NCBI GenBank assembly: GCA_045658315.1
Contig: JAZOUV010000023.1
Coordinates: forward strand, 15,065-79,064
Reading direction: 5' to 3'
DNA: 64,000 bases
From: Eubacteriales bacterium
GTDB lineage: Bacteria > Bacillota > Clostridia > Oscillospirales > CAG-272
Part shown: positions 17,400 through 38,238 of the stretch, in pieces
Layout of the letters: each line of letters starts with the position of its first letter
Position numbering within the stretch: the first letter of the stretch is position 1
The notes under the pieces: generated by a model
The model's input: the letters and a program-made list of their open reading frames with translations, nothing else
What the model was told of the DNA's origin: nothing
Databases searched by the model: none
Translations under genes and position numbers: made by a program

Positions 17400-17897
17400 T
17401 TATATATTTTTGATTTCTTCTTGGAGCTTTGCGTCCTTGAGTTTTACGCCTTCAGCCATTTTAACCTTTTCCGCTTCAAGCTTTTCTGCGAGTTCATCGT
17501 CTGAAAGGGCGATTATCTGTGCGGCGAGAATAGCCGCATTTGCACAGCCGTCAACTGCTACCGTTGCAACGGGTACGCCGGGAGGCATCATTATGGTAGA
17601 AAGGAGTGCGTCCATTCCGTCGAAAGATGCACTTTTTACGGGAATTCCTATAACGGGAAGTGTGGTATATGCCGCAAGTACACCGCCGAGGTGTGCCGCC
17701 ATACCTGCCGCACTGATAATAACGCCAAAACCGTTAGCCTTTGCATTTTTTGCAAAACTTGCCGCTTCGTCAGGCGTTCTGTGTGCGGAATACACGTGAG
17801 TCTCAAACGGAATACCGAAATATTTCAGCTTTTCGAGACAAATTTTTACCTTGGGGAAATCGCTGTCGCTTCCCATAATTACAGCTACTTTTTTCAT
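17400..17897 (-). CDS. purE: 5-(carboxyamino)imidazole ribonucleotide mutase
   Basis: MKKVAVIMGSDSDFP...SAHRTP...AAGMAAHLGGVLAAYTTLPVIGIPV. Start moved to ATG 17897, behind GGAGGG with 7-nt spacing. The track start at 17954 adds 19 aa with no SD. Confidence 0.93.
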   Translation of the reverse strand: MKKVAVIMGSDSDFPKVKICLEKLKYFGIPFETHVYSAHRTPDEAASFAKNAKANGFGVIISAAGMAAHLGGVLAAYTTLPVIGIPVKSASFDGMDALLSTIMMPPGVPVATVAVDGCANAAILAAQIIALSDDELAEKLEAEKVKMAEGVKLKDAKLQEEIKNI

Positions 17898-17940
17898 ATG
17901 GTTGCCCTCCTGATTTATGTAAATATTAGTTAAAACGAAA

Positions 17941-17975
17941 CACAAAAAGGACATTCTTAGGGTGAATGTCCTTTT
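17941..17975 (-). terminator. intrinsic terminator/attenuator between the leader transcript and purE
   Basis: On the minus strand, AAAAGGACATTC-accctaa-GAATGTCCTTTT followed by TGTGTTT. It sits 44 nt upstream of the purE ATG and abuts the stop codon of the small ORF. Confidence 0.8.
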
Positions 17976-18093
17976 ATTTTGCTATCGTTAAAGAGTTGCA
18001 GTTATACTGTGCAGTTTTGCCGAAATGGGTGCAACAAGGCTGTGAAGATGAGCAAATTGTGTTTGATTTGCAACAGCACATACAACGTGTCAT
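17974..18093 (-). CDS. possible 39-aa Cys-rich small ORF in the pur leader (MTRCMCCCKSNTICSSSQPCCTHFGKTAQYNCNSLTIAK)
   Basis: In-frame ATG at 18093 with GGAGG (rc of 18104-18108) 10 nt upstream, and 8 Cys in 39 aa. It lies wholly inside the promoter-to-terminator unit. It may be non-coding leader RNA instead. Confidence 0.25.
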   Translation of the reverse strand: MTRCMCCCKSNTICSSSQPCCTHFGKTAQYNCNSLTIAK

Positions 18094-18129
18094 ACCGCAT
18101 TTTCCTCCGACAAAACAAAATACACCAAT

Positions 18130-18158
18130 ATTATACATAATATAATTAAACTTGTCAA
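18130..18158 (-). promoter_or_regulatory. consensus sigma-70 promoter driving the pur leader
   Basis: On the minus strand, TTGACA (18158-18153), a 17-nt spacer, then TATAAT (18135-18130). Both hexamers are perfect. Confidence 0.8.
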
Positions 18159-18211
18159 TCGGTAATATAACATTTTTATCGTTAATACAAACATTTTTTG
18201 TCATATTTTTC

Positions 18212-18703
18212 TTATAATAAATACTTATTTGCTAGATTAATTACTTTTAATCCTTTTCTGTAGGCATAGTTTACGGTGTAAAATGTTCCCCCGAATTGTT
18301 TCTTTAAATAACACAAACAAATACTGCTTGAATTAACAAGGTGTCTGTTTCTTTTATACATACATGTGTTGTCATAGTTTTCGGATGTATAAACGATTTT
18401 GTCGCTTTTGTCTTTAATTTTTAAATATCTTTTTTTGTCTTTTTTTGACCAATATTTCGTTTGGTCTTTACATGGATAAACCATTATCAGTTTTATATGC
18501 GTTTTTTTCTTCTTTAAGCGAAGTATTTCTTCGGCGGCTATAGTATCAAAACCTACGGCACCGCCACAACCGAAATATACTATTCCGTTGTCAACCAATG
18601 AAATAAGAGTCTTTCGTATCTTTTTTCTTAACATAATCAGTTTGTGTAAAGGTATATTTCTGTGTCCGCTTATGCAACAGGTTTTTTCAATCAAAATAAT
18701 CAT
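18212..18703 (-). CDS. DUF1273 / SLOG-family protein (YpsA/YoqJ-like)
   Basis: 163 aa. CCISGHRN..., FGCGGAVGFDTIAAEEIL and GGTFYTVNYAYRKG match the DUF1273 SLOG pattern (xxTGHR, GGAxGxD, GGTxxTxxYA). Very AT-rich. Confidence 0.75.
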   Translation of the reverse strand: MIILIEKTCCISGHRNIPLHKLIMLRKKIRKTLISLVDNGIVYFGCGGAVGFDTIAAEEILRLKKKKTHIKLIMVYPCKDQTKYWSKKDKKRYLKIKDKSDKIVYTSENYDNTCMYKRNRHLVNSSSICLCYLKKQFGGTFYTVNYAYRKGLKVINLANKYLL

Positions 18704-18807
18704 TCCTTTCGTTCTGTATAGACTAACACATTATATAACGTATTAATCTATATGTAAAGTGAAAAAATAAGATACTATTTAAAAAATATATAACGAGGAA
18801 GTATCTT

Positions 18808-19011
18808 ATGATAAAGTTAAGGGTTTTGGATTTATTAAAAAAGAACGGAAAGACAAAATATTGGCTGTATAAGCAGCTTGGAATGAGTTATCAGAATTTC
18901 AACAAAATGGTAAATAATGAAACTAAATCCATTCGTTATGAAAATATTGAAACTATGTGTTTGCTTTTTAATTGTACGCCAAACGATTTATTTGAAATAA
19001 CAGAGGATTAA
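18808..19011 (+). CDS. small XRE/Cro-family helix-turn-helix transcriptional regulator
   Basis: 67 aa. LLKKNGKTKYWLYKQLGMSYQNFNKMVNNETKSIRYENIETMCLLFNCTPNDLF is a typical single HTH_XRE domain. GAGGAAG SD upstream. Divergent from the SLOG gene. Confidence 0.8.
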   Translation: MIKLRVLDLLKKNGKTKYWLYKQLGMSYQNFNKMVNNETKSIRYENIETMCLLFNCTPNDLFEITED

Positions 19012-19071: not shown

Positions 19072-19306
19072 TAAGAAAAATAATGCAGTGATCGGGAAAA
19101 TGCCGTCGGATATAGGTTATTAAAAGGGTTCAGAGAGTGCATTGCTTAGGTGTAAGATGCATACCCGCCGAGACGGAAGTGCGCCCGTGAGCAGGTGTTA
19201 ATCACACCCGTTTTGTCAGCGATAACAGACACGCAAGTTATAAACCGAAGTGGAACCGCGGAATGTGCCGCCTTTGAGTAATATCAAAGGCGGATTTTTG
19301 TTTTTT
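19072..19306 (+). promoter_or_regulatory. T-box riboswitch leader, cysteine-specific (UGC)
   Basis: AGAGAG bulge (~19131) and a distal-loop-like GGUGUAA. The T-box sequence AAGUGGAACCGCG is at 19248-19260. The terminator GCCGCCTTTGA-gtaata-TCAAAGGCGG plus T-run is at 19267-19306. UGC triplets occur at 19158 and at 19180 (context GAAG-UGC-G). cysE and cysS lie downstream. Confidence 0.8.
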
Positions 19307-20210: not shown

Positions 20211-21611
20211 ATGAAACTTTACAACACATTAACAAGACAAAAGGGGGATTTTACACCTCTTAAAGAAAAAACTGTAAGGATCTACTCTTGCGGACCCACG
20301 GTTTACGGCTATGCACATATAGGCAATATGAGAACGTATTTGTTTATGGACTTTCTTCGCAGAACGTTGCAGTGGAACGGCTACGACCTTCTTCACGCAA
20401 TGAACATAACCGACGTAGGTCACCTTGTAAGCGACGGTGATGACGGCGAGGACAAAATGAACAAAACTGCACGCGAGCAGAAAAAAACTCCTTGGGAAAT
20501 TGCAGAATACTATACAAGTGTGTTTCTTAGAGATATTGACAGACTCAACATTCAGCGTCCCGAGCTTATCCCCAAGGCAACTATGCATATTCAGGAAATG
20601 ATAGAGTTTGTTCAAGGACTGCTTAAGACCGGTTATGCTTACGAAACGAGCGACGGTATTTATTATGATATCAAGAAGTTTAAGGATTACGGCAGACTTT
20701 CCAGAATGAACTTTGATGAAAATCAGGCGGGAGCCCGTGTTGAAGTAAACAGTGAAAAACGCCACCCCGCAGATTTTGCACTTTGGAAAAAGGCTGACCC
20801 CACACACATTATGCAGTGGGAATCTCCTTGGGGTATGGGTTATCCCGGCTGGCATATCGAGTGCTCGGCTATGGGGCTCAAATATCTTGGTGAAGAGTTT
20901 GATATCCACACGGGCGGTGTTGACCATATTCCGATACACCACGAAAACGAGATAGCACAGACTTGCGGTTTGCTCGGGCACCCTGCGGCTAAATGGTGGA
21001 TACACGGCGAATTTATGCTTGTTGACGGCGGTAAGATGTCAAAAAGCCTCGGCAACACATATACTCTTGACCAGCTTGAAGAAAAGGGATATTCTCCTAT
21101 GGTGTTCAGATATTTCTGTTTGAATGCTCACTACGGTCAGAAGCTCAACTTTACATTTGACGGTATGGACTCCGCTAAGAAGTCGCTTAAAAATCTTAAG
21201 AATCAAATTAAGAAGCACAAAGGAGCTGACGGTGTCGTAAGTGAAGAAGAGCTTGCGAAGCTTCTAAAGGAATTTGAAGATGCTATCAACGACGACCTCA
21301 ATATTCCCAAGGCACTCGGTGCTGTATGGAATATGGCGAGATATGAAACAAAGTCAAACGCCATATACGAGCTTATAATCCGTTGCGATTCTATCCTCGG
21401 TATTGACCTTGATAAAGAGGATGTTGAAGAGATATTCGCAAACGAGGTTGACAGCGAGCTTGATAAAGAAATCAAGGAGCAGATTGCACTTCGCCTTGAG
21501 GCAAAGAAGGCAAAGAATTACGCAGAGGCTGACAGAATCAGAAACGAGCTTGCGGCACGCGGTATTGTTCTTACCGACACAAAAGAGGGAACGACTTATA
21601 CCATAAAGTGA
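20211..21611 (+). CDS. cysS: cysteine--tRNA ligase
   Basis: 466 aa. Class I motifs HIGN (AHIGNMR) and KMSKS. AGGAG SD upstream. Confidence 0.97.
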   Translation: MKLYNTLTRQKGDFTPLKEKTVRIYSCGPTVYGYAHIGNMRTYLFMDFLRRTLQWNGYDLLHAMNITDVGHLVSDGDDGEDKMNKTAREQKKTPWEIAEYYTSVFLRDIDRLNIQRPELIPKATMHIQEMIEFVQGLLKTGYAYETSDGIYYDIKKFKDYGRLSRMNFDENQAGARVEVNSEKRHPADFALWKKADPTHIMQWESPWGMGYPGWHIECSAMGLKYLGEEFDIHTGGVDHIPIHHENEIAQTCGLLGHPAAKWWIHGEFMLVDGGKMSKSLGNTYTLDQLEEKGYSPMVFRYFCLNAHYGQKLNFTFDGMDSAKKSLKNLKNQIKKHKGADGVVSEEELAKLLKEFEDAINDDLNIPKALGAVWNMARYETKSNAIYELIIRCDSILGIDLDKEDVEEIFANEVDSELDKEIKEQIALRLEAKKAKNYAEADRIRNELAARGIVLTDTKEGTTYTIK

Positions 21612-38147: not shown

Positions 38148-38238
38148 GGAGAAGTACTCAAGTTGGTGAAGAGGCGCCCCTGCTAAGGGTGTAGGTCGGG
38201 TAACCGGCGCGAGAGTTCAAATCTCTCCTTCTCCGCCA
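38148..38238 (+). tRNA. tRNA-Ser (anticodon GCU), CCA encoded
   Basis: Manual cloverleaf. Acceptor GGAGAAG/CTTCTCC, anticodon stem CGCCC/GGGTG with loop CU-GCU-AA, long variable arm (type II), T arm GAGAG-TTCAAAT-CTCTC, discriminator G, then CCA. Confidence 0.9.

Follow-up and report, generated by a model that had tools for sequence, protein, structure and literature searches.

The purEFNH operon in the stretch of DNA analyzed here is preceded by a short leader that probably functions as a ribosome-dependent transcription attenuator of the pyrBI/pyrE type. The stretch (the window) comprises 64,000 nucleotides from a Eubacteriales bacterium (GTDB order Oscillospirales, CAG-272; assembly GCA_045658315.1, contig JAZOUV010000023.1, positions 15,065 to 79,064), and the leader lies on its minus strand: a consensus promoter, a Shine-Dalgarno sequence (SD), an open reading frame (ORF) of 39 codons and an intrinsic terminator follow one another directly upstream of purE, with the stop codon of the ORF fused to the terminator. 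A coupling attenuator is proposed because of this fusion, because E. coli offers a precedent for the control of termination by placement of a stop codon, and because the ordinary genes of the window avoid such an arrangement.

The proposed device is simple. Transcription from the strong promoter would generate a leader RNA of ~180 nt that would be translated from a strong SD. A first ribosome following close behind the RNA polymerase would be on or near the stop codon at the time when the terminator's 3' arm is transcribed. Because the stop codon is fused to the terminator, the terminating ribosome, with a footprint extending ~10-15 nt downstream of the A site, would cover the 5' arm (GGACAUUC); no hairpin would form and polymerase would read through into purE. 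Were the ribosome to lag, or not to have been loaded, the terminator would form and the operon would be off. One can think of such a switch as comparing the speed of the polymerase with the speed of the ribosome. It would not need an RNA antiterminator, and none is apparent, by RNAalifold and by folding, in either of the two groups of leaders described below; the best upstream partner of the terminator's 5' arm, judged by eye, is a match of 5-6 bp. We infer that the leader ORF is translated from its SD, its ATG and the conservation of its frame; translation being granted, the stop codon lies within a ribosome footprint of the stem. That ribosome occupancy would be the cause of read-through is argued by analogy.

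The analogy is with pyrimidine genes. The rph-pyrE transcription unit of E. coli has a UTP-sensitive coupling attenuator in which an upstream ORF is translated to or through the terminator. The purE leader resembles pyrBI and pyrE in having what would be a translated ORF extending up to or through an intrinsic terminator in front of genes of nucleotide biosynthesis, a ribosome that would block the hairpin, and no RNA antiterminator. The geometry on which the proposal turns has been validated experimentally: shortening the distance between a stop codon and a downstream terminator from 28 bp to 5 bp in E. coli reduced termination from ~90% to <10%, and did so in a translation-dependent manner (PMC4824070). 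The pyrBI leader itself operates by transcription-translation coupling (PMC5021804). The differences are that the purE leader serves the purine pathway, in a Gram-positive, Clostridium-type host, and has no sequence homology to the pyr leaders; that the tract preceding its terminator is A/C-rich in the window's clade and not U-rich; and that the response to NTPs, which is known for pyrBI and pyrE, is here proposed.

The elements of the leader are collected in Table 1. An initial annotation of this DNA had located promoter, SD, 39-codon ORF, terminator and purE, and the sequence, together with promoter and terminator scans, bears out the positions of all of them. With its 12/12 match to consensus, the leader promoter is the top-scoring site of a 2-kb promoter scan; transcription is predicted to start at about 18123-18126. 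The start codon (18093-18091) is ten nt 3' of the SD. At the other end of the ORF, the stop codon overlaps the A-extended base of a 12-bp stem (17975-17945) whose G-C core begins 5 nt further on; the core comprises GGACATTC (17971-17964), the loop (17963-17957) and GAATGTCC (17956-17949), and the sequence after it is TTTTTGTGTTT, with the T-run at 17948-17944. The distance from terminator to purE is 44 nt and, in agreement with what the initial annotation had maintained, the 2-kb scan scored no promoter-like site in between. This anatomy also suits that annotation's proposal of a cis-acting leader: expression of purEFNH (17897-13773, minus strand) appears to depend on read-through.

Table 1. 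The purE leader and the operon that it precedes (positions in the window)
Feature	Positions	Strand	Basis or occurrence
Promoter, sigma-70 type: TTGACA, 17-nt spacer, TATAAT	18158-18153 (TTGACA); 18135-18130 (TATAAT)	minus	12/12 consensus match
Palindrome ATATTATGTATAATAT enclosing the -10 box	18143-18128	minus	sequence
5' untranslated region (UTR), U-rich, ~30 nt, with conserved GUAUUUUG and SD GGAGG (18108-18104)	18123-18094	minus	
Leader ORF, 39 codons plus TAA; product MTRCMCCCKSNTICSSSQPCCTHFGKTAQYNCNSLTIAK	18093-17974	minus	sequence
Motif UUGUUGCACCC (main-group counterpart: U-run+GCACUC)	18037-18027	minus	most leaders, both groups
Final part of ORF, A/C-rich and G-poor, running into the terminator	18022-17977	minus	base composition
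AUAACUGCAAC inside leader ORF	18005-17995	minus	alignment; also in L002
Stop TAA (17976-17974) fused with terminator AAAAGGACATTC / loop ACCCTAA / GAATGTCCTTTT, then TGTGTTT	17976-17941	minus	
Spacer with purE SD GGAGGG (17910-17905), before purE ATG (17897)	17940-17898	minus	
purE	17897-17400	minus	Pfam AIRC domain, 6e-60
purF	17363-15975	minus	ORF; GATase/Pribosyltran domains recorded for orthologous neighbors
purN	15973-15347	minus	ORF; Formyl_trans_N domain recorded for orthologous neighbors
purH	15323-13773	minus	ORF; name from sequence only

How unusual is a stop codon in this location? There are ~90 terminator-like sites in the window, and an SD-preceded ORF ends between -12 and +3 nt from the stem at only 5 of them. 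Among these five, the purE leader alone combines an ATG start with a short ORF of substantial length (39 codons), and it additionally has a full GGAGG SD and a consensus promoter. Ordinary genes in the window avoid terminators so close to their stop codons.

The leader recurs at other purE loci. The sample comprised 80 purE-relative loci from Oscillospirales/Eubacteriales genomes and nine loci of the window's own clade that were found by homologue look-up, with purE 83-95% identical (WIN designates the window locus and L-numbers the related loci). An automated criterion (an SD-led ORF of 20-60 codons ending from 12 nt before the stem to the hairpin loop, <=150 nt from purE) recognizes leader ORF and terminator in 38 of 90 purE loci, and an earlier curated set was similar; by automated tally, the stop codon lies <=1 nt from the start of the stem in 25 of the 38. 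All 12 members of the clade have the same succession of promoter, U-rich UTR, SD, ORF (30-41 codons), stop codon, GGACATTC-N7-GAATGTCC-T-run and purE. The spacing of SD to ATG is 7-11 nt across the 12, the promoter is embedded in T(A/G)TA(T/C)AATATTAATGTA, which is homologous in all relatives, the terminator stem is invariant in 11 members, and in 11 of 12 the stop codon is immediately next to the stem. The abutting stop codon, which had already been remarked upon when the leader was first annotated, is the key feature. The spacer between terminator and purE measures 33-65 nt in the relatives; because it is so short and so variable, a conserved promoter within it is unlikely.

A larger sister group (the main group), represented at many more distant purE loci, has a like architecture with another terminator, (A)AACTGCAAC-loop-GTTGCAGTTTTTT, and a promoter, AAATTTTATAT...GTGTTGAAATT...ATATTGTACAATATTAATGTAAG, that hardly varies from one genus to another. 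Each locus has a single copy of the conserved promoter pattern, invariably at the purE leader. The rule that the stop codon is placed at the stem is common to two unrelated terminators, GGACAUUC/GAAUGUCC and ACUGCAAC/GUUGCAGU, and to further variants (CUGUGGC/GCCGCAG, GCUGUGAC/GUCGCAGC, CAGGCUG... and others). The clade and main-group leaders are homologous, since a U-rich+GCAC(C/U)C motif is common to the two. The ORFs of the window locus and of L002 still hold AUAACUGCAAC / AAAACUGCAAC; AUAACUGCAAC is homologous to, or a remnant of, the 5' arm of the terminator found in the main group (AACUGCAAC...GUUGCAGUU). Wherever the leader was found, including at loci that came from an unrelated terminator-pattern scan, it stands directly before purE. 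(Used as a metagenome probe, the main-group terminator pattern proved to be unspecific, retrieving mostly unrelated hairpins, and was abandoned; the metagenome matches that also carry the motif are all purE leaders of the L057 type.) The palindrome at the -10 box, a perfect one in the window as in the main group, reads ATATTGTACAATAT in the latter (L004, L022, L024 and others; ~230-330 nt upstream of purE). The conserved palindrome and promoter may be an operator for a further regulator acting on top of attenuation.

Does the leader belong to purE or to its other neighbors? The divergent neighbor of the leader is cysE-cysS in L203, L204, L206 and L208; the window and L202 have two additional genes there, one HTH and one YpsA/SLOG, that separate cysE from the leader. 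(The YpsA/SLOG gene occupies 18212-18703 on the minus strand; a 67-aa ORF lies at 18808-19011 on the plus strand, and its L202 counterpart is annotated HTH_26.) The YpsA/HTH pair looks like a small insertion. Since the relatives that lack YpsA and HTH keep the leader, and since the similarity between L201 and the window begins ~25 nt upstream of the -35 box, the leader belongs with purE and not with the AT-rich insertion. The alternative put forward in the initial annotation, an independent peptide gene that arrived with an AT-rich islet, is not supported, given the same observations and a peptide that evolves almost freely and belongs to no family.

To judge by the aligned leaders, an open frame ending at the terminator is under selection and the peptide is barely constrained; it is the act of translation, not the peptide, that appears to be selected. 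In shuffles of ORF bodies that kept dinucleotide content, the chance of the frame's remaining open averages ~0.17 per leader, and the product over 22 leaders, which excludes that of the window, is ~1e-19. No in-frame stop codon is found in ten clade lineages (the window included), for which 13.2 are expected (z=-3.9), or in 18 main-group leaders, for which 31.9 are expected (z=-6.3). Despite indels and differences in ORF length, the frame always reaches a stop codon at the stem. A 1-nt indel shifts the frame in L052, yet the ORF ends, with TAATAA, at the stem. L052 and L059 read the GCACUC-type motif in a different frame, their ORFs still ending at the terminator, and because its reading frame differs in these two loci the motif must be conserved at the nucleotide level.

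The clade peptides, conversely, are almost unalignable. In four close pairs the ratio of nonsynonymous to synonymous divergence (pN/pS) of the leader ORF is 0.29-0.55, and all three codon positions take up substitutions about equally. For the window and L202, the ratio is 0.43 for the leader ORF (4/6/6 substitutions at the three codon positions) and 0.06 for purE (pS 0.437, pN 0.027; 5/5/50); these two loci differ at 1 of 65 positions in promoter and UTR, at none in the terminator stem and at 16 of 120 in the ORF. Richness in Cys, to which the initial annotation had drawn attention, is not a conserved trait of the leader but specific to a lineage: the eight Cys and the Cys run (CMCCC, CC in the window) are confined to the window and the near-identical L201 and L202, and the other clade members have 3-5 scattered Cys.

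The terminator is the only consensus structure that RNAalifold yields for the window's clade. Deprived of the terminator's 3' arm, the window leader folds like its shuffles (z=-0.34; with the 3' arm, z=-2.25). These results speak against a new class of cis-regulatory RNA in the riboswitch sense, which was the other suggestion made on first annotation; the accompanying recommendation to compare homologous purE upstream regions has been followed, and the leader is present there and not missing. Two further structures had been pointed out. The 9-bp helix joining 18116-18108 with 18022-18014 exists in the window and is kept in L201, L202 and L002; elsewhere there is shifting U-rich/A-rich complementarity, weakly above shuffles (p from 0.01 to 0.76 per leader, the window included), and the helix was dropped as a defining structure on account of its shifting position and these p-values. 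The hairpin GCAAAT-N8-ATTTGC (18071-18052; GCAAAU/AUUUGC in RNA) is also there, has one pair broken in L201 and L202, is absent elsewhere, and was likewise given up. An ORF of 32 codons in the +1 frame does start at ATG 18100, as described; it is confined to the nearest relatives, its ATG follows the SD by just 3 nt, and it was rejected.

The main group has a hairpin inside the ORF. In its subgroup A, pairing extends to 87.9% of cells, and compensatory changes are seen at 8 of 13 pairs; 0 of 500 shuffles exceed this, and slid controls give 31-55%. The loops vary freely, and a U-run and G(C/U)AC lie 7-11 nt further on. (The covarying 9-13-bp hairpin, with the U-run and G(C/U)AC(U/C)C at that distance, is seen in L029, L037, L039, L046, L052, L055 and others.) Hairpin and U-run together suggest a pause signal of the hairpin-dependent kind more than an aptamer; they may also be a weak first terminator. 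A GAGUG-like 5' partner for the main-group GCACUC can be made out by eye in L039, L040, L048 and L059 and is absent in others.

What would such an attenuator sense? The favored input, again by analogy, is a slowing or pausing of polymerase that depends on purine NTPs: at low ATP or GTP the ribosome would catch up and the operon would be on. Polymerase speed limited by purine NTPs would be the physiologically simplest input, the purine analogue of UTP sensing at pyrBI and pyrE. Two features hint at it: the A-rich, G-poor tract of the clade (A 43%, C 27%, G 11% and U 19% in the last third of the ORF, the window included, compared with A 31% and G 23% in the operon mRNA), and the covarying hairpin and U-run of the main group. 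The UUGUUGCACCC motif is possibly a pause element. Alternative inputs to the same device would be a ribosome that slows at Ser or Cys codons, or general translation capacity.

Other known leaders resemble that of purE in part. The attenuators of amino acid biosynthesis (trp, his, leu, thr, ilvB) also place a short ORF with an SD, and an intrinsic terminator, ahead of biosynthetic genes, and the main group may, as they do, hold a pause hairpin inside the leader. The purE leader differs from them in having neither a run of cognate codons nor a mutually exclusive antiterminator hairpin, in the position of its stop codon, which is next to the terminator and not upstream of segment 2, and in serving a pathway whose end product is not an amino acid. 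The mycobacterial poly-Cys short ORFs (the Cys 'ribulon') share with it a Cys-rich upstream short ORF and an effect of ribosome position. They are leaderless, control access to the ribosome-binding site of Cys-metabolism genes and need consecutive Cys codons (10.1101/834739); the purE leader, in contrast, has a 30-nt UTR and an SD, a Cys run in three relatives, and purEFNH as its target. Leader ORF and intrinsic terminator are combined in the Firmicute leaders of bmrB-bmrCD, vmlR and yxjB/tlrB. Two papers (PMC6851288, PMC9226507) describe NusG-dependent pausing as synchronizing ribosome and polymerase in Firmicute antibiotic-sensing leaders. In the bmrB-bmrCD, vmlR and yxjB/tlrB systems a drug-stalled ribosome favors the antiterminator; the purE leader has neither a link to drugs nor an antiterminator. 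Purine, ZTP, PRPP and THF riboswitches have the same position and a terminator-type output before purE; the purE leader differs in having no Rfam match and no aptamer-like fold, and in its conserved ORF, which is presumably translated.

Several considerations weigh against a coupling attenuator. Coupling of transcription and translation is weak in Bacillus subtilis, and a ribosome may rarely catch up with polymerase unless polymerase pauses, a pause that we infer. The window's own clade has no counterpart of the main-group hairpin/U-run element. The invariant terminator stems and GCAC(C/U)C are not explained by the model and could be recognition elements for a protein or a ligand. The leader ORFs of the window and L202 have diverged by 0.13, compared with 0.44 at purE synonymous sites, so that some constraint at the nucleotide level is left over. 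Finally, certain amino acids are over-represented relative to shuffles: Cys 2.2-fold in the clade (z=6.2) and not in the main group, Ser in both groups (z=4.6 and 5.7), Gly and Met in the main group; this hints that codon content may matter.

It is because the invariance of the stems, GCAC(C/U)C, the conserved -10 palindrome and the low divergence of the ORF are left unexplained that another model is kept, at low probability: a metabolite riboswitch of a new class, or the target of an RNA-binding regulator, in which GCAC(C/U)C and the invariant terminator are what is recognized and the ORF is incidental or part of the expression platform. Conservation of UUGCACC/GCACUC whatever its reading frame, terminator stems that do not change in sequence across many species, and the covarying hairpin of the main group would all be at home in such a model, as would the excess of UTR-ORF complementarity over shuffles (a hand-computed Fisher combination of 12 p-values, whose members are not independent, comes to ~0.002). 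We nevertheless consider it quite unlikely: a multi-stem consensus fold and conserved junction or loop nucleotides are lacking, the body of the window leader is no better folded than its shuffles, the loops of the main-group hairpin are free to vary, Rfam has no match in ~50 loci and an SD-ATG frame kept open and ending at the stem in 38 loci would be left unexplained. A second alternative is an independent small gene, for a Cys-rich peptide or a small RNA, with its own promoter and terminator, purE being expressed by leakage or from an unrecognized promoter. Promoter, SD, ORF and terminator do make a complete cassette, extended versions of which (P0001 and P0123) were indeed predicted by gene callers. 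A gene of this kind is very improbable, given a peptide that is unconserved (pN/pS about 0.4-0.5), is without a Pfam or NCBIfam family and has no homologues among 1.8 billion representative proteins save the two mis-extended calls and Cys-repeat noise, and given a location that is always directly before purE, is not linked to the YpsA/HTH insertion and is separated from purE by a 33-65-nt spacer without a promoter.

The third possibility retains the leader-ORF attenuator and changes its input to the supply of amino acids: slowing at Cys or Ser codons would keep the ribosome from the stop codon and shut down purine synthesis, thereby linking purines to the supply of serine, cysteine and one-carbon units. 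The enrichment of these codons, and of Gly and Met in the main group, speaks for it; so do the mycobacterial poly-Cys short ORFs, which are proven Cys-responsive attenuators (10.1101/834739), and cysE-cysS as the ancestral divergent neighbor. It is unlikely all the same. The Cys run is found only in the window, L201 and L202, the main group is not enriched for Cys, and several Cys codons stem from motifs conserved as RNA (UGUUGCACC, AACUGCAAC); an operon turned off by starvation has the opposite polarity to that of classical attenuators, and none of the regulated genes is a Cys or Ser gene.

Database searches place the leader in no known family. At gathering score, Rfam has no match to it in the window or, by cmscan, to any leader in ~50 related loci; the covariance models of the purine (RF00167), ZTP, PRPP/ykkC and THF riboswitches matched no leader in the window or in these loci; and a sensitive Rfam scan of 17700-18800 returned only unrelated families, the best at E=1.2. 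That the leader is not a known riboswitch, as first annotated, therefore stands. Pfam and NCBIfam have no match for the 39-aa peptide, its 76-aa extension or the +1-frame product, and HMMER searches of 1.84 billion representative proteins found only P0001, P0123 and Cys-repeat noise. The 76-aa ORF (18204-17974), P0001 and P0123 were rejected as genes: their N-terminal parts are translations of the conserved promoter, that is, extensions made by gene callers. Nor does the peptide look like a Cys-rich protein or RiPP precursor, since it is barely constrained, has no family and has YpsA, HTH, cysE and purE as its neighbors. An exact-sequence look-up of the window's purE has none on record. A leader peptide or attenuator for pur genes was not found in text searches of the literature, and the upstream ORF candidates presented in PMC11109978 do not include the purE leader. 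Attenuators that work through a leader ORF or through coupling are already known; the purE leader would be an example from purine biosynthesis for which no earlier description was found and for which Rfam has no model.

Some additional observations can be recorded. Upstream of cysE, at 19079-19293 on the plus strand, there is a T-box leader that scores below Rfam's gathering score (56.2 against 93 bits, E=1.7e-11); a terminator-like hairpin occupies 19268-19293. The true start of cysE is probably ATG 19325; the mechanically assigned GTG 19250 lies inside the T-box leader and is probably wrong. The cysS gene occupies 20211-21611. A tRNA gene at 38148-38235 (plus strand) is the window's only Rfam match at gathering score. 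Ten purE loci without the leader (L005, L007, L015, L021, L028, L050, L054, L061, L073 and L079) have an upstream ORF that ends 20-40 nt before purE and shares a C-terminal motif, ...T/SxMxLTxSRNxxGxYxYSxFxDxQ.... An unrelated recurrent element, conserved across many gut contigs, was encountered in metagenome contigs L085, L096, L100, L101, L104, L106, L116-L118, L176, L179, L192, L194 and L199; it reads ...acagaagtaaatctgtgtt(t/g)a ACTGCAAC-(T/G/A)AGTAAG-TTGCAGTTTT, usually followed by ttattttgaataatgatataatagg...aaaacgctatatatttgaaag.

The accepted regulators of purine synthesis in the Firmicutes are PurR and the guanine, ZTP and PRPP riboswitches. The most far-reaching form of the present proposal, which is speculative and which we regard as rather doubtful, is that the purE leader constitutes the first purine counterpart of pyrBI and pyrE: a kinetic sensor of purine NTPs, widespread in gut Oscillospirales, with a ribosome parked at the stop codon as the sole antiterminator, that replaces the purine and ZTP riboswitches and PurR of other Firmicutes. 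For the search for regulatory motifs there is a caution in these findings, in that a conserved intergenic sequence accompanied by a terminator need not be a riboswitch. If the coupling attenuator is real, the conserved and unannotated short ORFs upstream of purE would be accounted for, and a simple, portable genetic part, with an output set by the placement of a stop codon, would be at hand. The leader precedes purE in a large share of Oscillospirales, among them many uncultured lineages from the guts of humans and animals; should the proposal hold, the sensing of NTPs or of translation by the coupling of ribosome and polymerase would extend to purines and to the Clostridia.

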